Shown one piece after another: positions 16,401 to 60,049 of a stretch of 64,000 nucleotides of DNA. A program made the position numbers and the translations under genes. The stretch comes from Callorhinchus milii (taxonomy: Eukaryota). The stretch spans positions 8,558,001 through 8,622,000 of the forward strand of contig NW_024704742.1 of assembly GCF_018977255.1 (NCBI RefSeq), given 5' to 3'. How positions within the stretch are numbered: position 1 is the stretch's first letter; each line of letters opens with the position of its first letter. Under the pieces are notes generated by a model that did not search any database, was not told where the DNA came from, and worked only from the letters and a program-made list of their open reading frames with translations.

Positions 16401-17769
16401 GTGCACAAGGACAGGGTGAGATGTCTGTATTGGGATTCCCAGACACAGCCCCATATCTGGAAAATGTGTCATTTATGACATGATCAAGTGTAGATGCAGT
16501 GCTGCTCGGTGGGGGGAACATGAGCTGATCCCCTCCATGGCTAACAGATCGCTTATCTGCAGTTTGTGGGATTCAGGGAAGTCTAATACAGCAGCAATCA
16601 GTGCTTTTGGAGGGGAGAGGGAGAAAACATCCTGCGTGACTTTGTTAATGTATCACAATGTCAGTTCCAGCGCAGCATTGCAATTTAATCTGTTTTCAGG
16701 CAGCATCCGAGCTCCTGCGCAAAATATCCAGTCAAATCGAGAAGTGTTTTGCTGTAGTTATTGAGATCAGATTTTAAGTGGGATTGAGAAAGTAAACCTT
16801 TGGAACCACAGAACAAGAGCTCCCAGGTTCAGAGTTGCAGAGGGCGATTTCAGGACAGAAAGCAGGAAATATTTATTTACCAGAGGGTTAATTAAACCAT
16901 TTGCCAGGCAGAGTATTTGAGGCCAGATTGCAGTGATGGGTAGGATGTGTATTCTGGATAGAGGAGGAAAAATACTCATAAAAATCATAAAAATCTTACT
17001 TTTAATATTGTCCAGTAGTCTTTTTTATGTCCTCTTTGCCTTCCTAATTTTTTGTTTTGCTATTTTTCTGTGCCCATATCACAGATATATATTGATTATT
17101 ATAAAAACATTCTGATTTCTAGGTTGATACGAGGCCCTGAAGTCACCAGCAAACACTCATATCCATTTACCTGCTGCTGGCTGGATTTATCTAAACTGGT
17201 GGTTAATATGTAATCTTCAGTGTTCAATAATAATAATAATTCTTGCAGTTGATTTGACATCTTATCATATCTTAGTCTCAAAGCACTTCACAGAATATAC
17301 TATAACGCGAATTGACGGTGTACTTTGTGGGCAAAATGCGGCAGCCAACAATGCACAAAGCAGGTTTCTTCTGCCTAGAGTGAGAGTGAGCATCCTGTTT
17401 AAATAAACATGTGTCAGATACCCAGCTGACCAAAAAGAAATGTGTATACCCAATCACCGTGCTTAAAACTCTTTAAACCAAACTGAGAATTCATGTATCC
17501 CACCTACACATGGAAATTCCAGAGATGTTTAACTGGAATGGAATGCAACATTTTTGAAAACAGAGAGGTTTATCTGTCTCTGGACACACACCCTTCCCAT
17601 TGATCACTGATGAATTGTTTTACACACTAAATTCAAATTTAAATATAAGATGTGATCAGAATGACTGTAGTTATTGTCACTGAGGATAGAGTGATTGGAT
17701 TGACATTGGTTTTCTTTATTTCCAAAGGTTGTTCAGAAATATCATCAACGACAGGAAAGAGTTCACATA

Positions 17770-17791
17770 ATGGCAGGGATTCTCAAACCAG
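17770..17791 (+). CDS. APOL: APOL-like copy 1, start exon (MAGILKP, phase 1); whole exon ~17728-17791
   Basis: ttccaaag acceptor, then ATG GCA GGG ATT CTC AAA CCA G|gtaatt. Paralogous exon at 32796-32859. Phase matches the downstream 25-nt micro-exon. Confidence 0.65.
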
Positions 17792-17824
17792 GTAATTAAT
17801 CTATTGGAATTGATGAAAATTGGA

Positions 17825-18115
17825 AAGTCCTGTAGCTCAGTGGTTAGAGCACTCGCCTTGCAAGTGAGAGGACCTGGGTTTGATTCCCGGGCAGGGCGGA
17901 TTGCTCTTCTGAGGGTAATAATCCCTTCAAAAAGAAATAATAATTTGGTCATGCAATCCATGACTGTTTGTGGGACACTGCTGTGAGTAGTTGGCTGCCA
18001 TGTCTCGCTAAAAGATATGCAGTCAAGTCATTTTACAGTATATTTTGTTAAGTGTTGAGACATTTCAAAGACGTGATAAGGTGCTAAATCAAATGTAAGG
18101 ATTATTATTTTTATT
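17825..18115 (+). mobile_element. tRNA-derived SINE in the intron after the copy 1 start exon (absent from copy 2)
   Basis: A box TAGCTCAGTGG, B box GGTTTGATTCC. The paralogous intron at 32860-32930 is uninterrupted. Confidence 0.9.
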
Positions 18116-18412
18116 AAAATATGAACCTATTAATATTAACCCAAAACAAGTAATTTAGTGATTGGAATTGATGGCAATATTAACTTTCTATTCCAATCCT
18201 GCGCCCACTGCACCGAATAAGATAACAACCACCTGCCATCCCTCAGAATCAGGAGCAGCCCTGAGCCATCAAACACAACCCCACTGTCTGAAACCCCATC
18301 ACATTGAACCTCTTACCCCCACCTTCACACTCACTTAAATTCCACCAACTATGGTGACTGCGTGTGCCTGTGTGTGTTGGGGAGGGGTGGTATCTATGTG
18401 CTTCTTTCAGTC

Positions 18413-18426
18413 AGTTTCTCTTTCTT
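18413..18426 (+). promoter_or_regulatory. ISRE-like element
   Basis: AGTTTCTCTTTCTT matches the ISRE consensus AGTTTCNNTTTCY. It lies just upstream of a conserved exon-like block ending GAGTG|gtgagg (18594). AP-1-like TGACTCA at 18481. Confidence 0.5.
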
Positions 18427-18448
18427 GCTGTGTCTCTGAGTCTCTGTT

Positions 18449-18680
18449 ATGTTGAGTTTTCCCCACTCGCGGCTCCTGTGTGACTCACTGTGTTTGCCAG
18501 GAAAGAAGCCAAACCTTAACAGCAGTAGAGCTGTCACATTGCTGCTCTGCTCCTGTCGCTGCCGAGGGGAGATCGCTTTGTTTACCCGCGAGTGGTGAGG
18601 ACATTCCCTCCTGTGTGGTCACTGTATCAGTCAGGATTGTGTCTGTTCACTCTGCTAGTTGCAGATAATAACCAGTTATA
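18449..18680 (+). repeat. Near-identical paralogous block (possible alternative first exon plus intron); copy at 37703-37930
   Basis: Direct match (ccccactcgcggctcctgtgtgac...gagtggtgaggacattccctcc). A partial third copy starts at 33526. Confidence 0.9.
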
Positions 18681-18704
18681 TTTTTTGCACTACTTATTTA
18701 CCAG

Positions 18705-18729
18705 ATGCAGATCTTGATGGGATGTACTG
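18705..18729 (+). CDS. APOL: APOL-like copy 1, 25-nt micro-exon ((D)ADLDGMY(W))
   Basis: ttaccag|ATGCAGATCTTGATGGGATGTACTG|gtacgtacag. Same length, phase and donor as three paralogous micro-exons. Confidence 0.65.
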
Positions 18730-22275: not shown

Positions 22276-24052
22276 GTGACCCCTGAGTGGCCATTATCTG
22301 CTGCCAGAGTCGCTCAGCTGAGTGACAGAAAGAGAGAGGGAGGGGGGACAGAGGAGAGGGAGAGAGAGAGGAGAGTGGTGAGGGCGGGGAGAGAGGGAGT
22401 GGGGAGAGAGGGAGTGGGGATAGAGGGAGGGAGAGAGAGGAGAGGGGAGAGAGAGGGGGGAGAGAGAGAGGGGGCGGGATAGAGGGGAAGGAGAGAGAGA
22501 GAAGGGGTACAGAGGGAGGGAGAGAGAGAGGGATAGAGGGGAGAGAGGGGGATAGAGGGGAAGAGAGGGAAGGGGATAGAGGGAAGGGAGAGAGAAAGGA
22601 GAGGGGAGAAGAGAATGGGAGAGGGGGAGAAAGAGGGGAGAGGGGAGAGAGAGAGGAGGGTGGGGAGGGGGAGAGAGGGGACAGAGCGAGAGAGAAGAGG
22701 GGTGGAGAGAAAGAGTGGGGGTGCTAGTGAGGCGGAGAGGGGAAGGGGGATTAGGAGAGAGTGGATGTGGGGAGAGGTGGGGGGGGAGAGAGAGGAGGAG
22801 AAGGAGAGAGGGGAGGGGGTAGCGAGAAGAGGGGAAGAGAGAGTGGTGGGGGAGAGAAGGAGAGAGGAGGGGTTAGTGAGGGGAAGAGAGAGTGGAGGGG
22901 GAGAGAGGGGGAGCGGGGAGAGAGGGGGAGGGGGGAGAGAGAGAGAAGGAGGGGGACAGAGAAGGGAAGGTGGCGAGAGAAGGGAGGGGGGAGAGTGGGG
23001 AGGGGGCACGATTGAGAGAGGACAGAGAGAGTGATTGAGAGGAGGAGAAGAGAGTGATTGACAGAGAGATAGAGAGAGAAAGAGCATGAGGGAGGGAGGG
23101 AAAAAGAAATAGAGGAGAGGGGGAGAGAGAGAAACCTAAAGACTGAGAGAGCAGAGAGAGGACAATTGAGGAGAGACGATTGGAGCCTCCCTCAGCCACC
23201 GCGGGGTGTGCGTGGGGGAGAACGAGGTCAGATACCAAGTGAAGAGACGTGCAGTTCCCTCAGAGAAAACTCCCTCTTTCCCCAGTGAGAAACTTCTCTT
23301 TGTCCTTCATCCTGCCCCCACCTCCCCCCGCCCTGACCCCATCTCACCGCTCAGCCAATCCTTTGCCCAACAAACACCAACTTTCTTCATGTCCCCCCAC
23401 CCCATCTGCCCCATTATTGCCATTTTCGTGGAGTCCTGTAGCTCAGTGGTTAGAGCACTCGCTTTGCAAGTGAGAGACCTGAGTTCAATTCCAGGCAGAG
23501 GGCGAAACCTTGGACAAGTTTCCTTACTCCACACAGAGCCTAATAATAATCCCTCCAAAACCAAAAACAATAATAAATTGTTCATTTTCAATCTACGACT
23601 GTTTGTGGGACATTGCTGTGCGCAATTGGCTGCCGCGTTCGCCCACAAATGCACAGTCAATTCACTTTACAGTGTGTTCTATGAAGCGCTTTGGGACATC
23701 CTCCTGACGTGAAAAGCACTATATCAAATGCAAGGATTATTATTATTATTATTACTGGTCCTTAAACCCTATGCCTAATTTACACTAACCAGAATATGAC
23801 AAATGTCGCAATATTCAGAAATAGAAAATAGCCTGACACTAAACTGTGACACCAGCATCTCTATTCAAAGTTAATTTACAAAGGCAAAACAACCCTGACC
23901 TGGAGGCGAAGCTCTCGGGTCAGGTATGTACCTCCTTAATGACATACAAGGCGAAGAGTAACCCTGAGTTCAGCAAGCCCCCTTCTTTTATATGTCCTAA
24001 CGCCGACCCTTTGCAATGTATCTCATCCATTTTCCATCCATCTTTCATCTCC
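22276..24052 (+). repeat. Inverted duplication, left arm (GA-rich tract, SINE, unique sequence); runs into the gap
   Basis: Reverse complement of ~39620-41981. Near-identical ORF-track peptides on opposite strands (MTPASLFKVNLQ.., QFPQRKLPLSP.., TPEWP.SAARVAQ). Confidence 0.95.
23429..23753 (+). mobile_element. tRNA-derived SINE
   Basis: Full head, core and (att)n tail. Confidence 0.9.
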
Positions 24053-24082
24053 NNNNNNNNNNNNNNNNNNNNNNNNNNNNNN
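24053..24082. other. Assembly gap (30 N)
   Basis: Run of N. The ~60 bp after it aligns poorly to paralogs and is probably low quality. Confidence 1.
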
Positions 24083-24118
24083 CCTAATCGCGATTGACTC
24101 TTTAGTGGTTAGTACGCT

Positions 24119-24714
24119 TTGCGGGTGCCGCCCAACAAACTGGGGGATACATCAATAGGAGAGATCGCCGATGATATTGACAAGTGTCAAGATAGAAGCA
24201 ACACTGCCAAAGTCGTGGGGTCTGCTGTGAAAATAGTTGGAGGGATTCTTGCAGTCGGAGGAGCACTCGCTGCTCCTTTTACCCTGGGGGCATCGTTGGG
24301 ACTCACGGCTGCGGGGGCTGGGATGGTCATCGCTGGCAATGTCACTAACTTCACAGCTCGTGTCGGATCGTCCTTCAAAAGAAAAAATAAGAAAAGACAA
24401 CTTGATGAGATTGTGAAGGAGTGTAGCTCAGCCCTTACAGAAATAGATAATTGTTTCCAGGTGAGCCGCAGCATGGAGTCAAACATGAAACACGGGAAGA
24501 CAAGGAAGAGGATCAAGAAGCTGATCACAAAAGGTATTCAATTTGCTGCCAAGTCCACTTTGTCATGCTTGCCCCTGCTGGGAGAAGTCACCTCGCTGAT
24601 CAGAAATGTGGTTAAGTACAAAATAGAAAAAAGAAAGCTGCAAAAATGATCCGAGAGAAAGCTGATCTCATGAAGGTTACATTAGATAAGCTGGACGAGG
24701 AGTACAATACATGA
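24119..24714 (+). CDS. APOL: APOL-like copy 1, terminal exon (5' part lost in the assembly gap; frameshift at A-run ~24627-24636)
   Basis: EIADDIDK...AKVVGSAVKIVGGILAVGGALAAPFTLGASLGLTAAGAG is the typical APOL hydrophobic hairpin. The -1 frame continues KAAKMIREKADLMKVTLDKLDEEYNT* (TGA 24712-24714). ATTAAA at 24801. Confidence 0.85.
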
Positions 24715-26948: not shown

Positions 26949-29149
26949 GGCTACTTTCCTTACTCTCTATGCCTCGGCCTGACTATTCCAATTGCCTGCT
27001 CACTGGACTTCCCAACTCTTCCCTCCACAAGCTGCAGGATATTAGGAACTCTGCAGCTCATGTCCTCTCCTTCACTAGGCTCCACGAACCAATCACCCCT
27101 GTTCTTGCCCAGCTTCACCGGCTTCCCAACCATCAGAGAATTGAGTACAAAACCCTCAAAATTAGCTTCAAAGCCCTTCATGGTCTTGCTCCTCCCCCTT
27201 ACCCTCACCGACCTCCTAACCGCTTATCAGCCTCTCTGCAGCGTCCGATCAGCGGACACCGGCCTGCCTCAGGTCCCCCACACTTCCCGCCCAATCATTG
27301 GCAGTCAGACATTTAGCATCTCCTATTTGACATAAATACAGTCAAATTGCTGGGATCCTATAAAGTGTTGAATGATTGTCCAAAATCAATCATATTTAGT
27401 GTAGCACTTTTACCAGCACGGAAACTCCCAACACATTCTTTCACTTTCACGTTTACTGTACAGAGTCAGCATTAGCTCTGAGGAATATGACTGTAATTTA
27501 ACAGTAATATGGTGGGACAGGACAAAGGTGAGGAAATAAATGAAGGTGTGATCACTGATATTCCAGTAAATGTGAGGCTGAGCAATAATTCCTGATACCA
27601 GTTTCAGAGATTCCACGGGGCATAGGACAAGGTTACAGGGCAGATCATTGGGAGACCAGTAATAGAGAGTAGTGCGATGGTTCTACACTGATAGTTCATG
27701 CACCAGAATGTTTGTCATAAAAGTTTGATGTAAAGGTCTATCTACAGCACCTTGGGACGTCCTCCTAATATGAAAGGTTCTATATAAATGTAATATTGTT
27801 GTTGTTGTTGTATCGTGTGCCAGCTGACTAGGTTAGCAGCTCTCAGGCCTCTGAGACTGGTTGTGGGTCCAAATCCCTCGCCAGGATTGGAGATGTCGTC
27901 TGACGTGAAGGGCTCTATAACACTCAATTCACTTTACAGTATAGTCTATAAAACGCTTTGAGATAGCTCGAAGACGTGATAAGGAACTATATCAAATGCA
28001 AGGATTATTATTATTGCTATAAATGTAAGTTGTTGTTATTGAACTAAGATACCACAGTATGGGGTGGAGGTATCTGCTGGAGTTAAACCAGCTGAAACAC
28101 CATAGCTTGCCATTGAGGGACAGAGTGCTTTATACTGAGGGGCATCTCCAGAGCAACCTACTACATTTTGGTCTGAGCTCCAATTCATTTTTGACCCAGT
28201 GAATGAGGGGCAGGAGAGCCCCTACCCCAGGGGGGGAGGGGAACAGCTCAATCCTTTCCCCCCCCCAAATTTCACACACACTCTCACAGCTTCCAGAGTA
28301 GCTGTCAGGATCACATGTCAACCTGGATTACGGTAGCAATCTTGACTACGGGTCAAAAGCTTGGTTCAATCCTAGGTGGGAGACATAGATCTCAAAGCTG
28401 TCATTCCACTTCAGTGCTGGAGGTGTGCTGTATTGTCAGAGGTAGTATCGTTTAAAAACAACAATGGGCATTAACTAGCCCGCTATTGATGATACCTCAC
28501 ACTTCACACAGAATAGTCTCTCAGAACGCTTCAGCTGTTAAATTGAGGTCCAATCTGCCTGGTCAGGTAGACATTAATGATCCTGCAGCAAAAATCAAAA
28601 AGAGGAGTTTCTCTCTTTCCGTTTCCTGTCCAACAACTACTATTGGTCATTCACTTCATGGTTGCGTGTGGGCTATTGCTGTGTGCAAATTGGATACTTA
28701 CAGTCACTCCATGGTGTGAAGCCCTTTGAGACATCCTGCTGACATAAAAGTTCCTGTTTGAAATATGGATTCTCGGAGGTGTCGTCCTTTGGATGAAATG
28801 TTAAACCAAGGTCCTGTCTGCTGTGTTCATATTGGCTATTGGGCTTTCCCCAAAACAACATGAACACCAACTTGCCTTTACAGTTTCCTTCATGTGAGAT
28901 AGCGTCTCGAAAGCTCAACAGTGCTGAGTCTGACACTGAGCCAGCGACAAAGGAAAGGTTGAAGAGGAAGGTCTTAAGGTGTGATCTGAAGCTGACAAGC
29001 CGGGGTGAGGCAGAGTGATTGAAGCAGACTCTCTAGAGTCTTGAGGAGATGAGGCTGAAAGCATGACCTTGATGGTGAAGTGGAAGGGACAAGCAGGAGA
29101 CTGGACCCAGCCGAGCAGATGCAGAGGCCAGCGGTGAGTGGGAGGGGAG

Positions 29150-32615: not shown

Positions 32616-32837
32616 AGATTGAGGAGTTCCTATCCAAACATAGGAACCAATTTGCTCACAACAAGGTCCCACAAACAGCTGTGAAGAGACGAGTTTTGAG
32701 CCTTTGACAGAATGACTGTGGTTATTGTCAGGAAGAGATTGGAAAGGGATGATAAGGAGAGATTGCATTCATATTGTTTTTCTTCATTTCCAAAGGTTGT
32801 TCAGAAACATCATTGATGACAGGGAAGAGTTCACACA

Positions 32838-32859
32838 ATGGCACAGATTTCCAGACCAG
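32838..32859 (+). CDS. APOL: APOL-like copy 2, start exon (MAQISRP, phase 1); whole exon ~32796-32859
   Basis: ATG GCA CAG ATT TCC AGA CCA G|gtaatt. Exon and flanks are homologous to 17700-17820. Confidence 0.65.
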
Positions 32860-32949
32860 GTAATTAATCTATTGGAATCGATGAAAATATTGTATTAACT
32901 TCTATTCCAATCCTGTGCCCACTGCGAGTCAGGTAACAAGCTCCTGCTG

Positions 32950-33512
32950 TCTTCTCAGGGCTGAGCTGGCTCTAAGGTGAGGTTCCTGGCATCGGAATGT
33001 CAGAATCGAACCAGTCCTCCATGACCGTATCTCATCTAGTTCTTGAGCCAGGTGGGTCCACAGTACTCCAGGACCCTGCTGATGATGGCACAATCATCGG
33101 CAGGAGTTGGAAGGGCAGAACAGTCACTGGACAAAGACTCTTCCCACTCAGCTCCTGTTAACCCTGGAAGCCAAAGCTCTAATGGGAAATGTGGTCCAAG
33201 GCGGACAAGCAGCGGGAAAGCTTGTCAGATAGAGCTCTCAATGGCAAGCTATGCGGTTTTAGCTGGTTAGACTCCAGCAATTACCCCAACACACAATCTG
33301 GGGTCCCTAAACCTTGGCCCTTGCCAGCCTGTACTCTCTGGATTTAGATAAGCAGGGGTTGTCCTTCTAGGTAGAGGGAAAGAGCACATTCTAGACACAG
33401 GGTAAATTCCAGGTGAAGGTGACATGCAGACGTGGAACTCAGTCTGGTTTGGATACTCAGGAGCACGATGTTGGGTTTCCACAAGAATCAGACACCCACT
33501 CACCAAAAATAA
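32950..33512 (-). mobile_element. Tx1/L1-like 5' remnant in the intron after the copy 2 start exon
   Basis: Homologous to 14270-14810. It ends just before the paralogous ggtgaggatattccc block. Confidence 0.5.
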
Positions 33513-33641
33513 ATTTACTGTGAACGGTGAGGATATTCCCTCTTGTGTGGTCACTGTATCAGCCAGGATTGTGTCTGTTCACTCTGTTAATACCAGATAA
33601 TAACCAATAATAATGGCTCTTGTTTCTCCCTTGTTTAACAG

Positions 33642-33666
33642 ACATAGTCAATGTAACCGAGGACAG
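33642..33666 (+). CDS. APOL: APOL-like copy 2, 25-nt micro-exon ((D)IVNVTED(R))
   Basis: tttaacag|ACATAGTCAATGTAACCGAGGACAG|gtacgtacag. Open in phase 1 to phase 2. Confidence 0.7.
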
Positions 33667-34029
33667 GTACGTACAGATGTGAGGCAGCTGCTGAATAAAC
33701 TGTCTGATGTGTGTGTGTTTGTGTGTGTGTGCGCGTGTGTGTGTTAGTGTGTGTGTGTGAGCGTTTGTGTGTGACTCACATTACCGGAGACACGGGAAGG
33801 AATGTTGTCACATGTAATATGTGGGAATAAGTGAGAACTACATAAGACCACGAGAACATTAGAAACGCTAGATGAAAAAAAGACCAATGTCCATCTAGTT
33901 CGCCTTCAACCTTCCTAGCAGTCGCATGCAAATATGTACCAAACTATCTAATCTTGCTTTTCCAGCGTGAACATGCCCAATAGGCACTCCTCAAGTGGTT
34001 CAGATCCTACCCCTCACAACGTCTCCACT

Positions 34030-35130
34030 TCTTCTCCACAATTTCTCCTCTAGCCCCCGCACCATCTCATAAGGAGTTACTCAGGTCTCTGTCTTTGTCC
34101 GCCTCCTCTTCAATATCTATATGCTCCCTCTTAGTGACATCATCCCCAGACATGGGGTCAACTTCCACATGTATGTGGATGACACCCAACTCTACCTCTC
34201 TGCCTCCATCCTTGACTCCAGGACCACTGCTGTGCTGACAGAATGTCTGTCAGACATCAAGTTTGGATGAGAGCTAATTTTCTTCAGTTGAAAGTCAACA
34301 AGAATGAAGCTCTCCTGATTAGCTCCTGTCAATGCCTCAACACCTTAGGCGCTGACAGCATCACTATCCATCTTAATAAGCCAGTCTGGTGCCCTGGTGT
34401 CTTGTTTGACCCTCAAGTGTACTTTCTACCCCACATCCATGCCATGACCTGCTCTGCCTTCCCCCATCTCTGTAACATTGCCCGGCTCTGCCACTGTCTC
34501 ACACCACAGGCCGCCGAAACCCACATACTCGCATTCATAACATCCAAGCTTGACTATTCAAAGTCCCTCCTTGTCAGCTTCCCCAACTCCTGCCTCCATA
34601 ATCTGCAGATCATCCAGAACGCTGCAGCCCGTGTCCTCTCCTGCACCATCCTCTGTGACCCTTTCACCCCCAACCTCGCCCGACTCCAATGGCATCTCAT
34701 CACACAAAGGATACAGCTCAAGATCCTGTTTTTCACCTTCAAAGCCCTTCATGGCCTTGCGCCCCCCTACCTCTGAGACCTCCTTACCATATACCAACCT
34801 GCTCGCTCCCTCTGCTCAGTGGGCTCTGGCCTGCTTCACTTCCCTCGCCTCGCCCACCCAACCATTGACAGGTGAGCCTTCAGTCACTCTGACCCTGCCC
34901 TCTGAAATTCCATTTTGCAGTCCCTCTACCTCGCCCCCTTCCTTGCCTCCTTCAAGATCCATCTCAAGACCGTCTTCTTCAACCATGCTTTCGATCACCA
35001 TGCTTCCCCTCTGCCCTCCAGCCTCCCCAATCCCGACCCCCAGCTCAGGTCCGAAAAACTGATTGTCCAGCGCCTTGGGATGTCCTCGCCATGTGAAAGG
35101 CGCTATACAAATGTAATTTTGTTATTGTTG
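34030..35130 (+). mobile_element. L2 LINE 3' fragment
   Basis: VNFHMYVDDTQLY..WMRANFLQL..SKLDYSKSLL; (ttg)n-like tail. Confidence 0.9.
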
Positions 35131-35335
35131 TCTTGTTGTCCTCTTAATCCATTGAGCCCATCCATTCCCCCAACCATTCTAGTTGCCCTCCACTGTATCC
35201 TCTCAATTTCTCCCATATATTTTTGTACTTCGGTGACCAGAATTGTACACAGTATACTCCAAGTATAGTCTCACCAATGATGTATACAGTGACAGGATTA
35301 TCCCGCTATTTCAGCTTGCTATTCTTGGAGTTCTT

Positions 35336-35696
35336 GGAGTCCTGTAGCTCAGTGGTTACAGCACTCACTTCGCGAGCTAGAGGACCTGGGTTTGATTCCC
35401 GGCAGGTCAAAATGTTGGGCAAGTTTCCTTACTCACACTCCTCTGTTTATCTAGCATTAAGTAGGAACCCGGTTGTTAGTTGATTGGTGGATCACTTTTC
35501 CGGGAATAATAATTCCTTAACAAAAAATCCACTATTGTTTGTGGGACACTGCTGTGCGCAATTGGCTGCTGCAATTCATCCACAAAATACACACTAAATT
35601 CAATTTACAGTATATTCTGTAAAGTGCTTTGAAATGTGTTGAAGAATTGAGAAAGAGCTATAGCAAATGTAAGGATTATTATTTTCATTATTATTA
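35336..35696 (+). mobile_element. tRNA-derived SINE
   Basis: A/B boxes, core and tail. Confidence 0.85.
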
Positions 35697-35872
35697 CCTT
35701 TTGATACATTCTAACATCTGGTTTGATCTACTCATAACCACAGAGCATTGTTGCGAGAGCTTCGATTTATTATCAGTATCCCAATTAATTTCTAAAATCA
35801 CCAATTACGATCGTTGGTCCCTTACTGGTCACCTTCCTTATCTCTTCCTTATACACTTGTTTGTCCTAACAG

Positions 35873-36583
35873 GAAAGCGTTTGAAGCTGAAGTTAAACAG
35901 AGGAAGCAGGATGTGAAGGATTTTGTCACCTTGTTCCCTGTGTGGAGAGTGTGGATGATCAGCTACATCAGAGACCTACGAGAGATCGCATACGATATAT
36001 ACTCGATTCACAAACCAGGCACGAGAGTGGGAGTCGGCCAGAGTGTGGCTGGTGGGGCTGACAACACTGCAGCTTGTGACACGGACATTGTTACCCAAAC
36101 ACAGAGACGCAAAAGGGTTAATGATATCATTGAGCAATATACAAATGACAGCAGAGAAATGGCAGAGTGTTACATGAACTCTCACGAGCAGTTCGGATCT
36201 TGAAACGTTATGGTGAGAAATCAGAAACCGCATTTCCTGGTGGAGCTGAGAGTCTCACTGAACACTTGGCTGTATTTGCTGCTGTGGCTGAAACAATAAG
36301 CAAACAGGTGTCGGTGACATCCAGGGCCGGGCCAGCAGCTCAGACAAGGCTGCCTTTCATGTTGTCTCTCATCTCCAGAGCAAACATTCGTCATAATCTC
36401 AACCATGGAGCCAGGGCAGATATTGCTAAACACATTGACGGTGTGGCTAAAGTGCTGGAGGATGAAGTGATGGCGTATGAAGACGTTTATAAACATCTGG
36501 AAGGTACAGCAACTATTTCAATGTACAGCACAGCTGAGGCAGGGTTCAGTGATGTAATATTCATGGTGGGTGCAGGAAGATAG
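35873..36583 (+). CDS. APOL: APOL-like copy 2, terminal exon (frameshift ~36177; internal deletion of a hydrophobic helix)
   Basis: ctaacag|G AAA GCG TTT GAA. FPVWRVWM..LREIAYDI, IIEQYTNDSREMAEC and ADIAKHIDGVAKVLEDEVMAYEDVYKHL align with copies 3 and 4. AATAAA at 36602. Confidence 0.75.
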
Positions 36584-37702
36584 CAGAGTACATCTGACCA
36601 AAATAAATCTTCTTATGTGTGTGCAGAAGAGAAGGGATTGCACTTTACATGTGAGGGGAGAGAAACCGTTCGTTTGAAAGTATTCTCAACTCTAACTCAG
36701 AACTTTGTGGATTGTAGCTCACATCAGGACTTTGAGTTCATCATCCGGGTTTGAAACTCGAGAGCAGCGCAGGGTTGGGGAGAGCACTGCAATGTCGGAT
36801 GTGCTACCTTTTAGTTGAGACATTAAACCGAGGTCTATCTGTGCCATGTTCAGGTGGATGTTTAAATTCCACTGGCACTGTTTGAAAAGGCAAAGAATTT
36901 CTCAGGGTCAGGAAAACAATGCCCCAGAAAAAATTAGTTATTCACTTGTGGGATATTGCTGTGAACAAATTGGTAGCCACTTTTGCCTACAAAATGCACA
37001 GTCAATACACTTTACAGTAAATCCTGTGTGTTCGTGTGTGTGTGTGTGGGGAGAGATGTGTAACACTGTAACATTAGGAGGAGAGAAGTGACTGGGTAGA
37101 AATTCCTGCCTTGGGGCTAAATATTTTCTCTTAACACAGAAATTCTGAGTGCTCACAATTTGTCAAATTCTTAATCCCGGGCTTTAATTTTGAAGCTGGG
37201 TTTCCAGCGGTTTGGGACATCCTCCTGATGTGAAAGGCACAATACAAATATCATTTATTGTTCTTGTTGCTATAAGTTATTTTAAGAACTGAAAAAATGG
37301 GCTTCAAAGTTAGAACCAACTTCAACAATTTGCCAAATTCTGTACACTCTGAAAGAATAATAATAATCCTTGCTTTTGATATAGTGCCTTATCAAGTCAT
37401 TCAAACAACAACAATTTGCATTTATATAGAGCTCTTCACCCCGCACGGCATCTCGGAGTGTTTAACAGTGGCGGAGCCCGATTGGTGGATCGCTTCACAG
37501 GATATATTATAAAGTGGATTGACTGTGTTTTTATGGGCAAAACGTGCACACAAAATGCACACAGCAGTGAGCCACAAATAGTCGTGGATTGAGCGACCAA
37601 TCAAATTACAACCGGGTTCCTACTTACTGCGAGGTAAACACGTGTGTGGAATAAGGAAACTTGTAAAGTAAATTCGGGTGAAACTCCTGCACAATATCAT
37701 CA

Positions 37703-37930
37703 ATGCTGAGTGTTCCCCACTCGCGGCTCCTGTGTGACCCACTGTGTTTGTCAGGAAAGAAGCCAAACCTTGACAGCAGTAGAGCTGCCACATTGCTGCT
37801 CTGCTCCTGTCGCTGCCGAGGGGAGAACGCTTTGTTTACCCGCGAGTGGTGAGGACATTCCCTCCTGTGTGGTCACTGTATCAGTCAGGATTGTGTCTGT
37901 TCTCTCTGTTGGTACCAGATAATAACCAGT
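37703..37930 (+). repeat. Paralogous block matching 18449-18680; donor GAGTG|gtgagg after 37848
   Basis: Direct match; ORF-track peptides at 18480 and 37710 are almost identical. Confidence 0.9.
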
Positions 37931-37963
37931 GATAATGGCTCCTGTTTCTCCCTTGTTCAACAG

Positions 37964-37988
37964 ATACAGTCAGTGACAACGAGTACAG
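37964..37988 (+). CDS. APOL: APOL-like copy 3, 25-nt micro-exon ((D)TVSDNEY(R))
   Basis: ttcaacag|ATACAGTCAGTGACAACGAGTACAG|gtacgtacag, followed by a 105-nt intron to the terminal exon. Confidence 0.7.
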
Positions 37989-38093
37989 GTACGTACAGAT
38001 GTGAGGCAGCTGCTGAATACACTGCCGGATATTGTGAATGAATCACTTGTTGTCACATGGCTCTGTCTGATTGGCTTTTTATCTCATTAACAG

Positions 38094-38792
38094 GAAAGAG
38101 AACAAAGTTGTTCTGGAAAAGATAATTGAAACTTTTGAAAACTATTTCCCGGTCTGGAGAGAATGGATGAGAGGACACGTGAGAGGATTGCGAGAGATTG
38201 CAGACGACATCGTCAATTATCCCAAACAAGACCCCACAGTGAATATTACTGTGTGTAGTAGAGTGCAACTCTCCATTACAGCAATAATTATTGCCCCTTT
38301 CTCACTGAGCACGAGGTTGGTGCTTGTGGCCCTGGGAGGCAGGAAGGGTGTAGCTGAGGATGATGTGACTAGACACGTGGGTGTTACACAGACAGACAAA
38401 CTGAAAAGAGTTCATAGAATCATAGAACGTTATAAAAAGGACAGCAGAGAAATGTCAGGTCTATTGATGAAGCTCTACAGTGCGAAACTGTTCTTTAATG
38501 ATGAAATATTAAGAGAAGGTGCATTGAGTCTTGTCTTTGAGATATTCCCCAAGCACTGGCGTGCTTTTCCCACAGTTATCTCAGCAGCGACCAAACTGAT
38601 GATAGTAATGTTCAGGGCTGCGACAGGAGGGCTGTCAGGACTCTGTAATGTCTACTCTGGAGCAAACAATTTCTCTCCCTTAACCTTAACAAGACAGGAG
38701 TTGCTAAGCAGATACGAGAAGCGGCTGATATGATGGAGGATGAGATACGAGCATGTGAAGAGGTTTATAAACGTTTTCAAAAGAAAAATTAA
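38094..38792 (+). CDS. APOL: APOL-like copy 3, terminal exon (frameshift ~38640-38690)
   Basis: ttaacag|G AAA GAG. Contains FPVWREWMRGHVRGLREIADDI, IIAPFSLS and IIERYKKDSREMS. The -1 frame ends NKTGVAKQIREAADMMEDEIRACEEVYKRFQKKN* (TAA 38790-38792). AATAAA at 38832. Confidence 0.8.
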
Positions 38793-39619: not shown

Positions 39620-41981
39620 AAGGAGATGGAAGATGGATAGAAAATGGATGAGATACATTGGAAGGGTCAGCGTTAGGACATATAAAAGAAGGGGGCTTGC
39701 TGAACTCAGGGTTACTCTTCGCCTTGTATGTCATTAAGGAAGTACATACCTGACCCAAGAGCTTCGCCTCCAGGTCAGGGTTGTTTTGTCTTTGTAAATT
39801 AACTTTGAATAGAGATGCTGGTGTCACAGTTTAGTGTCAGGCTATTTTCTATTTCTGAATATTGCGACATTTGTCATATTCTGGTTCGTGTAAATTAGGC
39901 ATAGGGTTTAAGGACCAGTAAAACACTGTTGAGTTTTCTATACGGTGCTTCTCGAGTCTCTGTAAAGATCAAGGATGGAGGGAGAGATACAAACAGATTA
40001 TTGTCTGGTAGTGCAAAGGATGTTGATGAAAGCATCCCTTTGTTACACAATAAGGCATTGAGATTACCTGTCATCATGTGCATATTCTCATTAGTGCAGT
40101 TTCACTCAGTGAGGGGAACATAACATTTACACAGCACACTTTTCACGTTGAAAGAACGTCTAAAACGCTCAACACTATTGGTTGGGCACCTGAGCTGGGG
40201 GTGGGAGCCAAGGGAGGTGGGCAGGGAGGGGAAAAGATGATCGAAAGCGTGGTCAAAGAGTTGGGTCTTGACATGGCTTGAAAGAAGGGAGGGAGGGATC
40301 GAGTTGGAGAGAATCTGGGAATGGAACTCCAGAGAGAGGGGGCAAAATAATAATAATAATAAAAATCCTTGCATTTGATATAGCACTTTTCACATTGTCC
40401 AGACATCTTAAAGCGCTTCACAGAGTATACTGCAAAGTGAATTGACTATATATTTGTGCAAAATGCGGCAGCCAATTACACACAGCAGTGTCCCACAAAC
40501 CACATGGATTGAAGTGACCAATTTATTATTTTTTGGCTTGAGGGATTATTATCAGGCGTGTGGAGTAAGGAAACTTGCCCAAAGTTTCGACCTGCCGGCA
40601 ATCGAACCCAAGCCTCTCGCTTGTGAGGCGAGTGTTCCAACCACTGAGGTACAGGCCTCCATGAAAATGGCAATGATGGGGCAGATGGGGTGGGGGGACA
40701 TGAAGAAAGTTGGTGTTTGTTGGGCAAAGGATTGGCTGAGCGGTGAGATGGGGTCAGGGCGGGGGGAGGTGGGGGAAGGATGAAGGACAAAGAGAAGTTT
40801 CTCACTGGGGAAAGAGGGAGTTTTCTCTGAGGGAACTGCACGTCTCTTCACTTGATATCTGACCTCGTTCTCCCCCACACACCCCCCACTCCAATCGTCT
40901 CTCCTCAATTCTCCTCTCTCTGCTCTCTCAGTCTTTAGGTTTCTCTCTCTCCCCCTCTCTATTTCTTTTTCCCTCTCTCCCTCATGATCTCTCTCTCTCT
41001 CTCTATCTCTCTGTCAATCACTCTCTTCTCCTCTCAATCACTTTCTCTGTCCTCTCTCATTTGTGCCCCCTCCCCACTCTCCCCCTCCCTTCTCTCTCCA
41101 CCCTCCCTTCTCTGTCCCCCTCCTCTCTCTCTCCCCCCTCCCCTCTCGCTCGGTTCCCCTCTCTCCTCCCTTCCCCCTCTCTCCCCCTCCCTTTCTCTCT
41201 TCCCCTCCCTCTCTCTCCCCCTCCCCTCGCTACCCTCCCCTCTCTCCTCTCCCCTCCACTCTCTCTCCCCCTCCCCTCGCTAACCCCTCCCCTCTCTCCT
41301 CTCCCCCTTCACTCTCTCCCCTTCCCTCACTATCCCCTCCCCTCTCTCCTTCTCTCCCCACCACTCTCTCTCCCTATTCTCGCTACCCCCTCCACTCTCT
41401 CCTTCTCCCCCACTCTCTCCCCCCACCCCTCCCCTCCCCACATCCACTCTCTCCTAATCTCCCTTCCCCTCTCCACCTCACTAGCACCCCCACTCTTTCT
41501 CTCCGCCCCTCTTCTCTCTCGCTCTGTCCCCTCGCTCCCCCTCCCCAACGTCCTCTCTCTCTCCCCCTCTCCCTCTTTCTCCCCCCTTCTCCCCATCTCT
41601 TCTCTCCTCTCTCTCTCCCCTCTATCCCCTTCCCTCTGTTCCCCTCTATCCCTCTCTCCCCTCTATCCCTCTCTCTCTCTCTCCCTCCCATCTGTATCCC
41701 TTCTCTCTCTCTCCTTCCCCTCTATCCCCCCCCACCCTCTCTCTCCCCTCTCCTCTCTCTAACCCCCTCTCCTCTCTGTCTTCCCTCTATCCTGCCTCCC
41801 CCACTCTCTCCCCTTCTCTCTCTCTCCCCTCCTCTCTCTCCCTCCCTTCTATCCCCACTCCCTCTCTCCCCGCCCCCACCACTCTCCTCTCTCTCTCCCT
41901 CCCCTCTGTCCCCCCTCCCTCTCTCTCTCTGTCACTCAGCTGAGCGACTCTGGCAGCAGAAAATGGCCACTCAGGGGTCAC
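39620..41981 (-). repeat. Inverted duplication, right arm
   Basis: See left arm. Carries ~430 bp extra at ~39922-40345. Confidence 0.95.
40346..40660 (-). mobile_element. tRNA-derived SINE
   Basis: Reverse complement of the full SINE. Confidence 0.9.
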
Positions 41982-42614
41982 ATGACAAATTGCAGAAATG
42001 GGGTATTATTTCCACTCCCTGCGCAAGTTCCTCCCAACCACCAGCTCCTGCCGCTGCCCTGAGAGGACGGTTTGTGGGGAGGGAAGCAGCGAGTGGTCCA
42101 AAGTTGGAAATGGTCTCAGGCCAGATGCCGGCCATGGGCCGCCTATTGGACCACACTGACCTAAAGGAACAAATAATACATAAAAGAACACACAAACACT
42201 CAGGACAAGTGATGTTTGTGAGACAAACGGTGCAGGTAACACAGGGGCTGGAGTGCTGGGAAAAGAATCAGCAGCCATTCTTTAGTAGCTTTCACATGAA
42301 GAGGATGTCTCAAAGTGCTTACCATAACCGACCGGCACACGTGGGTTGGGGGCTGAGCAAAGTGAGACTCCGTACACTAAATCCTCGGCTTCGCCAGACC
42401 AATGTGGGGAGAGATCCAATCCGATGAACTGGAATTTTTTCCTGATAAGCGCAATTACAATGCCTTTATTGGCATTTTTCAATGCCGGTAAATGTCAGTA
42501 ACAACATTTGTTGTATTTGTTTGAGATCTGCAACCAGAAGATAGCGAATAAACTATCTTCTGCTCATGGGATTGAAACTGAATCAAAAGTGGATTTACTT
42601 AAGGCCAGTGAGCA

Positions 42615-47200: not shown

Positions 47201-48135
47201 GTTAAAGACAAATCATGTCTAACAAACCTGATGATACTAAGCTAGGAAAAGTAGTAAACAGTGAGGACGATAGTAGCAAACTGCAAATGGACATTGATAG
47301 ACTGGTAACATGGGCAGACATGTGGCAGATGAAGTTTAATGTGGGGAAATACAAAGTGATGCATTTTGGGTCAAAGAATGAGGAGAGGCGATATAAACTG
47401 ATGGTACAATCTGAAAGGAATTGAAGGAACAGAGAGACTTATGTGGGTTGCCATCTAAGTAAAGCTTTAAAGGTAACAGGACAGGTTGATGAAGCTGTTA
47501 AAGTAGCGTATGGGATACTAGGCTTCATGAATAGGGGCATAGAATACAAAAGTCAGGAATTTATGATGAACCTTTATAAAACACTAGTTAAGTCTCAGCT
47601 AGAGTACGGTTTTCAGTTCTGGGCACCACACTTCAGGAAGGATGTCAAGGCATTGGAGATTGACCAGGATGGTACCAGGAAGTGGGACTTCAGTTATCAG
47701 GAGAGGATAGAGAAGCCGGGATTATTCTCCTTGGAGCAGAGAAGGTTAAGAGGAGACTTAATAGAAGTTTTCAAAATTATGAGGGGATTCGATAGGGTGA
47801 ACAAGGAGAAACTATTTCCACTGGCGGGTGGGTCGATAACCCCAGGACACCGATTTAAAATAGTTTTAAAAGAAACAGAGGGGAGTGGAGGTGAGGAGAA
47901 AGTTTTTCACGCAGCAAGTTGTTCGGATCTGGAATATTTTGCCTGAAAGGGTGGTGAAAGCTGTTTTCGATAACAACTTTTAAGAGAGAAATAGACAATT
48001 ATTTTGGGAGGACAGTTTGCAAGGCTATAGGGAGAGCGCGGGGAGTGGGATTGATTTGCATAGTTCTTTTTAAAGAGCCGACACAGACACGATGGGCCGA
48101 AAGACCTCTTTCTGTGCTGTATAATTGTGTGATTC
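44250..48135 (+). mobile_element. Near full-length decayed CR1 LINE (ORF1 esterase-like, EN, RT, 3' UTR) interrupted by an L2 piece at ~46085-46500
   Basis: KLKNRTSKVVISGLLPVPRAS; NAQSV.NKVGELQ; NVTPLY.K..KDKPGNCRPVSLT; LEYGFQFWAPHFRKD; RRLRGDLIEVFKI. Confidence 0.9.
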
Positions 48136-48232: not shown

Positions 48233-48253
48233 AAAGTGAAAGTGAAAGAAAGT
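48233..48253 (+). promoter_or_regulatory. IRF-E/ISRE element upstream of APOL-like copy 4
   Basis: AAAGTGAAAGTGAAAGAAAGT (tandem GAAAGT repeats) ~75 bp upstream of a CAG|gtaaat donor at 48330. The intron after that donor resembles the one following the donor at 31770 in copy 2. Confidence 0.65.
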
Positions 48254-48284
48254 TGTGTTGTAAATTTGCGCACACCTTTATGCA

Positions 48285-48329
48285 TGTCATGTTCAGCCGG
48301 TCAGTCACACAGGTCACCCAGGCTACCAG
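48285..48329 (+). other. Putative non-coding first exon of copy 4 (start approximate)
   Basis: CAG|gtaaat donor. Downstream motif tgatgttgagga.cag.gagatc.ta is shared with 31857-31883. Confidence 0.4.
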
Positions 48330-49960: not shown

Positions 49961-50256
49961 GAAGTGTGGATTGAAAGGGGGGAAAGGTATGTGAAAACCT
50001 TCAGAATTACTGGAAATCTCCTGTAAGCAGGGTGGCTCCCTCCAGGGAGTGTGCACTTTCCATTCCAATTTACAAGAATTTTCATATATAGCTAGAATTT
50101 GGTAGATCGGGTTTTAAGGTTTATGGGGCAAGGGTGGATAATTGGACTGGAGGAACAGATCAGCCATGATCTTATAGAATGGCAGAATGGGCTTGAGGGA
50201 CTGAATGAATAGAGATGCACTCCTGTAATATTGATTTCCTTTACCTCTTCAGAAAC

Positions 50257-50341
50257 ATGATCGTTGAGGTTACAGGATCCTGGTCTAATCTCATCGTTCT
50301 CTTCCTCTTAGTCCTTCTGGCAGCATGGTTTCTCATGTCAG
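50257..50341 (+). CDS. APOL: APOL-like copy 4, start exon encoding a hydrophobic leader (MIVEVTGSWSNLIVLFLLVLLAAWFLMS, phase 1)
   Basis: Polypyrimidine tract, ttcag|AAACATGATC...ATGTCAG|gtaagg. Both ends resemble the start exons of copies 1 and 2 (ttcagaaacat; CTGGCAG..TTCTCA..CAG|gta). Phase is compatible with the micro-exon at 53391. Confidence 0.6.
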
Positions 50342-53390: not shown

Positions 53391-53415
53391 ACAGTAAAAG
53401 ATGCAATGAAGACAG
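53391..53415 (+). CDS. APOL: APOL-like copy 4, 25-nt micro-exon ((D)SKRCNED(R))
   Basis: tttaacag|ACAGTAAAAGATGCAATGAAGACAG|gtacgtac. Flanks are homologous to the other micro-exons. Confidence 0.7.
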
Positions 53416-54339: not shown

Positions 54340-57300
54340 TCTTGAAGGTTCATTGACAATGCCGGAGCATGGCATTCTATCTTTGATTTATACTGAGGAC
54401 TGATATGTCTCGATTTTCCACATCGGAATCAAACTACTTGTTTCTTTACACTTACGGTTTCTCCCTTTTTTCCTTCTTGCCATGAAAATTTGGCTTTCCA
54501 TTTCCAACCTGTGAGAGTCCCGCATTTTTCCACATCATTCTGAGTTTATTTTCCACCAATATGTTTCCTTTATGGCTCCTTAAATTTTCTTTCTCACCCT
54601 GTCTTGCTCCCACTTCATTACCATTCCCTTAAAAACTGCCACCATCACGCCCACCCTGAAAAAACCCTCCCTTGATGCGTCGCAGCTATCAAGCTACCGG
54701 CCCATCTCCAACCTCCCCTTTCTCTCCAAGGTCCTGGAAAGAGTTGTTGCCTCCCAACTGCGCTCTTTCCTTTCCACCCATTCACTTTTCAAACCCCTTC
54801 AGTCAGGTTTCCGTGCTGCCCATAGCACAGAAACTGCCCTGTTCAAGGTCACCAATGATATCCTGACCATCTGTGACCAGGGCTCCCTCTGCCTCCTCGT
54901 CCTCCTCGTCCTCCTCGACCTGTCGGCAGCATTCGACACGGTCGACCACGCTATCCTACTCCACCGCTTGTCCTCCCACCTCAACCTTCAAGGCACTGTC
55001 CTTGAATGGTTTAGCTCTTACCTTTCCCACCGTCTTCACTTTGTCTCGACGAATGGCTTCTCCTCCACCCCCCGTACTGTCTCATGTGGTGTCACTCAGG
55101 GCTCTGTCCTCGGTCCCCTCCTCTTCACCCTCTACATGCTTCCCCTTGGTGACATCATCCGCAGACATGGAGTTAACTTCCACATGTATGCGGATGACAC
55201 CCAACTCTACCTTTCCTCCTCTGCTCTCAACTCCACGACCCCCGATGTCCTGACAGCTGCCTGTCCGACATCGAGTCCTGGACGAGCGACAACTTTCTTC
55301 AGCTCAACGTGCGAAAAACCGAGGCCCTCCTGATTGGCTCACGTCAGCGCCTCCGCACCTCAGGCGCTGACAGCATCAGCATCCAAGGCTGCACTCTCCA
55401 CCTCTCAAAGCCAATCAGGAACCTCAGCGTTTTGTTCGACCCTGAGCTGTCCTTTCTCCCTCACATCCGCACCACAACTGGCACCGCCTTCCATCACCTC
55501 CGGAACATCGCCAGACTACGGCACTACCTCACCCCTCACGCTGCTGAAACCCTGGTCCACGCCTTTGTCACCTCAAGGCTGGACTATGGGAACTCTCTCC
55601 TCGCCGGCCTTCCCGCCACCTCCCTCCACAAGCTGCAGGTCATTCAGAACTCTGCAGCTCGTGTACTGTCCCGCACCAGGCTTCGGGACCACATCATTCC
55701 CACCCTCGCTCGCCTCCACTGGCTCCCCATCCCCCAGAGGATTGATTTCAAGATCCTCATCCTCACCTATAAGGCCATTCACGGCCTCGCTCCCTCCTAC
55801 CTCTCTGACCTACTATCCCCCTACCTACCTGCCCGTACCCTCCGTTCCTCTGGCTCCGGTCTGCTCCACGTCCCCCGCCCCAATCGCCCTACCATTGGTG
55901 GTCGGGCCTTCAGCCTCTCAGCCCCCAGGCTCTGGAACTCTATCCCCCAGTGCCTTCGCCGCTTCCTCCCTCTCCTCCTTCAAGGCCGGTCTCAAAACCT
56001 TTCTCTTTGACCGAGCCTTCAGCTCCCCTCTCGACTCTCTTCCCCTCCTCGCTCCCTCCCTTCCCTCCCCTCACCCTGACCATTTCCCCCCTCCTCGCTC
56101 CCTCCCTTCCCTCCCCTCACCCTGACCATTTCCCCCCTGCTCGGGTCATGACCCAACTGTGCAGCGCCTTGGGACGTCCTCCTGACGTGAAAGGCGCTTT
56201 ATAAATAGAATCTTGTTGTTGTTGTTGTTGTTGTGATCTACGCCTCATCATAGTACTGATTGTTCCTATCCCAGCTTTCTTCAAATCTAGACTTGTACGG
56301 TGGTAAGGAATGGGTAATGATCATTCTGTGCTATTCTGCAAAGTGATCCAGATTATTATGGACCAAATATTCGATATTCAAATACTTCCCATTGTCTGTC
56401 TTTATAACATTTTGGATGTTCTCCTGGTATTTGTCTGCAATGCTCCAATACTGTATTGGGATCTCCTTTATCATATCTTATGGCATTTAAGGTGTTTCCT
56501 TGGAAGTTGGCAGAATGCCTTTCCCATATTTCATGTCCACTGATAAGGTTTTAAACATTGTTGTGGACAATATCGCTACTAGTAACCTGAAATGTCCTTT
56601 ATCATCACATCACGTGTATTTTGTATAGCTCCGCGCTCTGCCTCATTAAATGATTAAAGGCATCCAGTTTTCCAACAAATTTGAGAATGATATTTGCCAT
56701 TACTTGTAGTTGCATTGTAGTTGCATTGTGTCATATGGTATTTTTACTCGAGCTACCTCTTCATCCTCGCCATCTGGGTTAGGTTTCAATTTGTATTGAG
56801 GGGTTGGATACAATGACAAGGCTTTCACTTTTCAGTATTTGACAGTAAATTCCCATCTCAACATTGTCGCTTCCATCATGATACTGATAGGCTTCATCGT
56901 CTAGACTTCTCCAATCAATTGATTCAGCAGCCACTGTGTCCAGTCATGGTATAGATTATACCCCTCTTAACTGTGTGCTGTTCTTGTATTTTTTTCTATT
57001 TATTTTTGGTATGCAACATGTGATCCCCTTTTCTGGCTTTTTGCGACAGAGCTGCTTGCACTCTAATTACAGTGTGTAAATCACTATTCTGTTCAAGTTG
57101 TTTAATATTTTGCTGAACATTTCTCTTACATTCATTTATCTTGTCACCCCATTCCTGCACTTGCCTCAAAATATCAGTTGCCTGTACCTGATAATATTTG
57201 GTGTAAACTTCTAAACTGTATACTCTCCACATCTAAAAGATTCAATTTCTTCCCTTCCATTTGAACTGTTCTATTTGCAGATTATCCTTAAAATCAATCA

Positions 57301-58967: not shown

Positions 58968-59947
58968 GGAAGCCCTCGAAGCTGAGATGCAAAAGAGAAT
59001 TGAAGAAGTGCAACGCTTTAAAGATCTGTTTCCTGAATGGCAAAAAAGGATGAGAGAACACGAAAGAGGACTGTGCAATATTGCGCACGATATTGACACA
59101 GTTCACCAAAATGCCACAGTAGCCAACATTACAGGGACCTCAATCGGCCTTGTCGGAGGAATTCTATCCATTGGTGGATTAATCTCTGCTCCTTTTACAA
59201 TGGGTTTATCATTGGGGCTCATGGGTGTGGGAGCTGGCATAGGTGTAGTTGGTGGTGTCACTAACGTTGCAGCTAGTGGTGTGGATGCTTTTAAACAAGG
59301 GAAATTATCAACAGCTATTGATGAAATCATGGAACAATATAAAGGACAGTACAAAAATGGCAAATTGCCACAATCAGTGTATCAACGCAATTCAATTCTT
59401 ACATCTCTGCATTGATGTTTCACAATGTAGAGCTGAAACCTCAACAATAAGAAAGGACATTCTTTCTAAAATGTGCAATTCAAAAAGAGATTCAGCAAAC
59501 AAAATGGTAGGAGATGTAGTGAGGGAAGCAGTAGATAAAGCACCAAGGATGGTAGCAACAATAACAGCGAGAATGTCAAGAAAAGCAGCAAAACAAGCAG
59601 TGAACAAAGCAGTAGAAGAAGCAGCAGGAAAAGCAGCAGGTAAAGTAACAGGTAAATCAGTAGGTAAAGCAGCGGGTAAAGCAGCGGGTAAAGCAGCAAG
59701 TAAATCAGTAGGTAAAGTAACAGGTAAAGCAGTGTTCAAAAACATGAGCAAATCAGGGTTATGCAAATTGGGGGCTGCTACAGCTTTGTCAGGACTCATT
59801 ATTGCATGGGATATCTATTCTATAGTAAAGGATTTCATGAAACTTGCAGAGGGATCAGGGACAGAACTTTCTAATCAGATACGAAAATTGGCCCAACAGA
59901 TAGAGGATGAAGTAAAGATTTATGAAATTATTCATAAGTCTCTATAA
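58968..59947 (+). CDS. APOL: APOL-like copy 4, terminal exon (frameshift at 59341-59343)
   Basis: ttaacag|G GAA GCC. Contains FPEWQKRM..LCNIAHDIDTVHQNATVANITGTSIGLVGGILSIGGLISAPFTMGLSLGLMGVGAG. The second frame gives KDSTKMAN...LSGLIIAWDIYSIVKD...GSGTELSNQIRKLAQQIEDE, a classic APOL C-terminus. Confidence 0.9.
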
Positions 59948-60049
59948 GGTATTACAGTGAATGATGCAGCATGGAAACAGGTCACATAGCCCAACTAGTC
60001 CTGAGGATGAGATTATGTGTGTCAAAGGGTCTTCTTCATCTTAAGCTCG

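Follow-up and report, generated by a model that had tools for sequence, protein, structure and literature searches.

Among APOLs, a working signal peptide is ascribed to human APOL1 alone in the sections of PMC8557400, PMC10937811 and PMC13177371 drawn on here. The gene is restricted to primates, with the split between APOL1 and APOL2 placed about 30 Ma ago, and its secreted isoforms vA, vB1 and vC carry the ApoL body behind a hydrophobic leader (aa 1–27), as given in the corresponding part of PMC8557400. Signal-peptide prediction also picks out human APOL4 isoform 2; in the portion of PMC8358165 that covers it, the prediction is weak and the peptide has no effect on cytotoxicity, a caution against assuming that a leader alters function. 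According to the same portion, the acid-dependent insertion of APOL1 rests on acidic residues in its hairpin, and human APOL3–5 insert at neutral pH (PMC8358165). APOL1 channels also need a C-terminal zipper, as set out in the relevant part of PMC8446801.

Callorhinchus milii (elephant shark) has an APOL whose start exon has been turned into a hydrophobic leader, a real and undescribed variant of the family. As in APOL1, an ApoL body stands behind a leader of similar length that is absent from close paralogues. Literature searches by title and term, mostly of open-access papers, returned no report of a Callorhinchus or shark APOL leader among the titles listed, and the main text of the nurse shark plasma proteome, in the part available, does not mention APOL among its six matches to the string "apol". 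A leader-bearing sister gene is already modelled in RefSeq as an uncharacterized protein. The reading preferred here, which the sequences make moderately probable, is that an ER-targeting exon was rebuilt in this gene (copy 4) and its sister, the sister being a working gene and copy 4 a broken one.

The window (the whole 64,000-nt stretch of C. milii DNA that was analyzed, numbered from its first letter) holds a cluster of APOL exons amid retroelement fragments, which an earlier sequence-only reading had divided into four copies. Short-start C. milii APOLs such as "apolipoprotein L3-like" (P0168, LOC103187865) follow the same plan as copy 4, consisting of a phase-1 start exon, a 25-nt microexon and one large exon, but their start is seven codons long and polar, without a hydrophobic segment, and the products are presumably cytosolic. 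What had been called copy 1 comprises two genes (17737–18729 and 24113–24714), with an N gap at 24053–24082. P0168 has an N-terminus matching the copy-1 start exon and microexon, whereas the main exon past the N gap corresponds to XP_007883241.2 (156/156 residues); this main exon shifts frame by one base within a run of A near 24628 and has its stop two codons early. Copies 2 and 3 (32805–38790) splice in frame from the donor at 36503 to the microexon at 37964, giving one two-module APOL like that of C. milii LOC103191485, with frame changes near 36175 and 38650–38690 relative to intact homologues. Since these two copies form one two-module frame, copy 3 was no longer considered an alternative cassette that uses a common start exon, an arrangement that would have provided a precedent for a shared leader. 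Two stretches, ~22300–24050 and ~39700–42000, appear by eye to be inverted near-copies, the look of a segmental duplication or a misjoin, and one of them abuts the N gap.

All features of copy 4 described here lie on the plus strand. The 89-nt leader exon (50253..50341) is preceded by a pyrimidine tract with AG and followed by GTAAGG. Translation from the ATG at 50257, which has A at −3, gives MIVEVTGSWSNLIVLFLLVLLAAWFLMS, that is, 28 codons plus one nucleotide ending at a phase-1 donor. The leader begins with an 11-residue start containing one Glu and no basic residue, continues into a 16-residue apolar core (L12–M27, 50290..50337) set inside a 24-residue uncharged run (V5–S28), and is followed by S-D-S-K; a further in-frame ATG at codon 27 has a weak context. 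The exon joins in frame to the microexon at 53391..53415 (25 nt, phase 1 to 2, encoding the polar linker DSKRCNEDR) and from there to the main exon at 58968. Paralogous microexons lie at 18705–18729, 33642–33666 and 37964–37988, and the GTACGTAC donor is common to them and to the copy-4 microexon. The initial claim that the exon encodes a hydrophobic leader and splices in phase is supported by the AG/GT ends and the in-frame joins, and by a RefSeq model, XP_042194187.1, predicted with the same joins.

XP_042194187.1 (LOC121849701) is a C. milii RefSeq model of 420 aa, named "uncharacterized protein", with a predicted intact frame. It was the one protein returned, from 2500 candidates, by a query with the main exon's first half; the three homologue searches gave 1, 6 and 6 proteins, so shark sampling is thin. 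The sister resembles copy 4 in the upstream exon (17/17 residues), the leader (28/28), the exon joins and a 100/100 pairing in the tree, with a single residue differing in the microexon. It differs in the body, where only 95/124 residues are identical in one part and 110/197 in the second half, and in having an intact frame, a longer Lys/Ala repeat and 13 more C-terminal residues. Its body does not lie in the window, and it is either a paralogue or a divergent allele of copy 4. The contrast between the two 5′ exons (45/45 residues together) and the 95/124 of the body may reflect shared DNA, recent conversion or an effector that diversifies while its signal is conserved. We propose the intact sister as the putative working full-length carrier of the leader. 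Counting against the leader, two older C. milii models of the same two bodies, A0A4W3ICC9 and A0A4W3GKD0, lack it and have their start within the main exon. An AlphaFold model of the sister (94 sequences; pLDDT 65.6, pTM 0.50) has a helical leader and a hairpin of low confidence. Foldseek against the PDB gave no match at E ≤ 0.001, and the ESM Atlas gave, for residues 19–70, no usable feature match and, by structure, generic helices only.

The sister model starts 18 residues before the leader, and the source of these residues is the 3′ part of an upstream exon in the window (48280..48329), which contains two in-frame ATGs, ends at a phase-2 donor (GTAAAT) and matches the N-terminus of XP_042194187.1 at 17/17 residues. 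This exon is in frame with the leader exon and would likewise put 18 residues before the leader of copy 4; counted from 48280, the hydrophobic core falls at residues 30–45, a position that could favor an uncleaved anchor. Located 33 nt before the upstream ATG is a tandem GAAA motif (48233..48247, an exact match), a candidate interferon-responsive promoter element that we take to be an IRF/ISRE-like site. With up to two mismatches, the IRF-like pattern, which was picked after this site had been seen, has 2 matches in the window against 0.29 expected, and 3/100 shuffles reach 2. The second tandem GAAA lies on the minus strand at 27439–27453; no APOL exon was seen on that strand, and the similarity of its context to that of 48233 (score 45) is within the null. 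Transcription probably starts close to the upstream ATGs, so both a long and a short N-terminus are possible. Comparison of the upstream exon with that of copy 2 gave scores of 40–42 against a null maximum of 46 (20 shuffles), an insignificant homology.

The short start exons of copies 1 and 2 (17737–17791 and 32805–32859) are 55 nt long with seven codons each, and the proposal that the leader exon is homologous to them was upheld. Global alignment scored 21.0 against the copy-1 exon (p = 0.0004) and 10.2 against the copy-2 exon (p = 0.018), each with 5000 dinucleotide shuffles. Among 258 genomic AG..AG/GT pseudo-exons, the copy-1 score was reached by 3, presumably, to judge by the scores, the two start exons and the leader exon, and the copy-2 score by 13. 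The evidence from a simple local scan was marginal, its score of 41 barely exceeding the highest value of 40 seen in 10 shuffles. Homology is further supported because the leader and short start exons agree in phase and in position before the same microexon. The alignment of the paralogues' ATG with CTG, noted in the earlier reading, is seen at codon 21 of the leader (50317–50319), in frame, in the copy-1 alignment. As likewise noted there, the new ATG at 50257 aligns with an ATC of copy 2, although that alignment places the 3′ ATG less cleanly.

The earlier reading had the leader gained or lost by moving the start codon within one exon. The exon is indeed the same, but the move alone is insufficient: from 55 to 89 nt there is a net gain of 34 nt, mostly in a T/C-rich stretch coding the apolar core, and the ATC to which the new ATG corresponds lies in another frame. 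Without the 34-nt length change the new ATG would be out of frame, so the change went beyond relocating a start codon. As a candidate source of the inserted tract, nearby retroelement sequence at 54896–54932 was rejected (score 34, inside the null range of 32–40). In the sequence of events that we envisage, the old seven-codon start would have been lost by ATG to CTG, the second exon would have lengthened by a net 34 nt, in T/C-rich sequence with codons for Leu, Ile, Val and Phe, and a new ATG would have arisen near its 5′ end. A small Callorhinchus APOL sub-lineage, copy 4 and the sister LOC121849701, would thereby have remade its second exon as an ER-targeting segment. Gain is weakly favored over loss as the simpler reading, loss of an older leader keeping some probability because the trees leave the sister group of the leader lineage unsettled.

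In a tree of 26 rows, the pair formed by copy 4 and the sister falls inside the unstarred Callorhinchus group (83/85), whose other members with a known start have the short form; a Heptranchias protein, with a deduced exon boundary, is also short-start. Hydrophobicity at the N-terminus (KD15) is highest in the sister (3.19) among the 179 ApoL homologues ranked, followed by a Narcine protein at 2.70; 182 homologues had been collected, 3 without a core match were left out, and the ranking holds among homologues only. The hydrophobic exon could instead be an old cartilaginous-fish feature, kept in few paralogues and lost elsewhere. Such a history would fit two further proteins with a hydrophobic N-terminus, XP_007909632.1 of C. 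milii and XP_069779609.1 of Narcine bancroftii, in each of which a W-x-N-L motif is seen by eye, yet neither N-terminus resembles the leader significantly (p = 0.54 and 0.12, respectively; 5000 shuffles). Placing the three hydrophobic-start genes in one clade is rejected (AU p = 7.9e-13, 18 rows, in a test run after the 26-row tree had been seen), short starts surround all three, and the model start of XP_007909632.1 resembles retroelement sequence. We regard an ancient exon, since lost from other paralogues, as unlikely.

Residues 1–64 of XP_007909632.1 (P0025) contain a hydrophobic segment ending LQKP-D, like short start exons; residues 9–30 resemble retroelement sequence at 47296–47361 of the window, so the model start may be wrong. 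The electric ray protein XP_069779609.1 (P0167) has approximately seven repeated units of ~32 residues in residues 1–225, before the ApoL domain, and at least four of them carry a hydrophobic peak.

A hydrophobic N-terminal core brings a nascent chain to the ER by established targeting rules. On the basis of its hydrophobicity, the rebuilt leader would bind SRP and so reach the ER translocon, and it probably sends the APOL protein into the secretory pathway. Sites fitting the (−3,−1) rule lie after residues 22, 23, 28 and 30. The 24-residue uncharged run and an n-region with one Glu and no basic residue appear to fit an anchor at least as well as a cleavable signal. The net charge of the N-terminal flank is 0 including the amine, and that of the C-terminal flank (15 residues past the core) is −3 in the sister; these charges would slightly favor a lumenal ApoL body, as in APOL1, either cleaved after Ser28 or Ser30 or held by an uncleaved anchor. 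Should targeting occur, we would give cleavage and a cytosol-facing anchor equal weight and a lumen-facing anchor slightly less, with none of the three reaching even chances.

The cytosol-facing outcome amounts to a distinct explanation, namely a reverse signal anchor (N-terminus in the lumen, C-terminus in the cytosol) of the cytochrome P450 type, which would leave an unsecreted APOL facing the cytosol on the ER or other membranes. Judged by P450-type anchor rules, the short, acidic N-terminus, the long apolar stretch bounded by Trp and the Lys(-Arg) 4–5 residues past it are as expected, and the hairpin without acidic residues is like that of human APOL3–6. Against this, the 15 residues past the core carry a net negative charge, which is −3 in the sister, where a single Lys is present. 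Such an anchor is a less likely alternative, which we rate below the preferred reading of an ER-targeting exon rebuilt in copy 4 and its sister.

The main exon of copy 4 (58968..59947) encodes a long helix and an uncharged hydrophobic hairpin, and it is interrupted by a frameshift. It matches Pfam PF05461 with E = 2.9e-25 (model 43–148) and 4.5e-07 (model 164–293), and the ApoL profile scores of its two frames, 89.7 and 30.0 bits, exceed the curated cut-off of 25.9, a family match. A profile of 94 homologues matches the N-terminal domain structures of APOL1 and APOL2 (E ~ 1e-10 to 1e-12). The hairpin, Gly-rich and apolar with invariant G-G-x-L..PFT-G-S-L residues, precedes the frame change near 59338–59341, which leads to an early stop at 59413–59415. 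The second half (59342–59944) has 201 open codons with Lys/Ala/Gly repeats, a WDIY pore-lining motif and a C-terminal helix. The pore-lining region and zipper of copy 4 thus lie beyond the frameshift and outside the leader's frame, whereas they are in frame in XP_042194187.1. The spliced ~363-aa protein first supposed for copy 4 would arise only on reading through the frameshift; the product from ATG 50257 is instead 185 aa. The repeats at 59580–59740, a fast-changing cationic helix, are longer and different in the sister and absent from other aligned shark APOLs.

If the frameshift were an assembly error, copy 4 would make the ~363-aa protein after all. At least one homopolymer-type indel is present in the window relative to a C. 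milii record (24628), and the second half of the main exon is fully open. The same out-of-frame tail, however, occurs in UniRef A0A4W3ICC9 from C. milii (141/142 identical), which represents a different haplotype or assembly because it differs at one other residue. An error is accordingly very improbable: the shared tail indicates that the break is real and that copy 4 is unable to make a full-length APOL. Single-base changes that create a stop make up ~4.8% in the second half, so the probability of finding no stop, assuming 40–90 neutral substitutions, is 0.15–0.014; with 201 codons still open, the break looks recent. Copy 4 would then be a recently broken duplicate or divergent allele, yielding at most a 185-aa fragment of leader, helix and hairpin. 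This fragment may escape decay if the main exon is the last exon, an outcome that a donor-like site at 59948, matching the donor used by copy 2, could alter.

Decay of this kind raises the prospect that the leader itself is a neutral by-product, the drifting start exon of a dying gene picked up by gene prediction and giving no stable protein. All four main exons of the window carry a frame change relative to intact C. milii homologues, and the RefSeq name is "uncharacterized". Hydrophobic pseudo-exons also occur by chance, KD12 reaching at least 2.5 in 3 of the 38 Met-initiated frames that end at phase-1 GT[AG]AG donors, the leader frame being the highest of the 38 (3.51). These points are countered by the intact 420-aa frame of the sister, by an exon that has retained its splice sites, its phase and an ATG in good context, and by an IRF-like site at the expected promoter position, and we find a purely neutral origin rather improbable.

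The description of copy 4 as convergent with primate APOL1 stands in part. The presence of a leader is confirmed, and its independent origin is well supported because APOL1 is primate-restricted and the only APOL described with a working signal peptide; in the tree, copy 4 falls among its Callorhinchus paralogues and separately from the rows for bony vertebrates, which do not include human APOL1, with no sign of APOL1 orthology. The likeness does not extend to the hairpin. APOL1 has E201, E209 and E213, the glutamates of its acid gating, whereas the hairpins of copy 4 and the sister have no acidic residue: the span of roughly T106 to V160 in the sister is free of Asp and Glu, as is the corresponding stretch of copy 4. 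Unlike in APOL1, the leader is separated from the FPxW motif by only ~40 residues, which suggests that the four-helix N-terminal domain is mostly missing. The pore-lining Asp is conserved, as nearly invariant D362 in the sister, the presumed equivalent of APOL1 D348. The leader gene is thus an APOL family member and not an APOL1.

The boldest reading, that elephant sharks independently evolved a classically secreted, interferon-driven APOL pore-former via a new start codon and an expanded pyrimidine tract within an ordinary start exon, is doubtful. If true, it would mean that a signal peptide works in an APOL outside the primates, that the leader has been conserved while the Lys-repeat-bearing body behind it diverged fast, and that hydrophobic segments were gained at the N-terminus of cartilaginous-fish APOLs up to three separate times, this being one. 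Similar selection is conceivable, given that skates carry blood trypanosomes (PMC12219518, in the part drawn on here), although literature searches found nothing on blood trypanosomes of chimaeras. The significance is tempered because the model is already in RefSeq and copy 4 is broken. APOL1 owes its roles as a serum weapon and as a kidney risk to its entry into the ER; if a holocephalan does have an ER-targeted APOL of separate origin, it would mean that this relocation recurs. The exon would then offer a nucleotide-level record of a signal sequence arising from a start exon and 5′ UTR, and the sister a ready-made setting for asking how a lumenal APOL that lacks acid gating spares its own cell.
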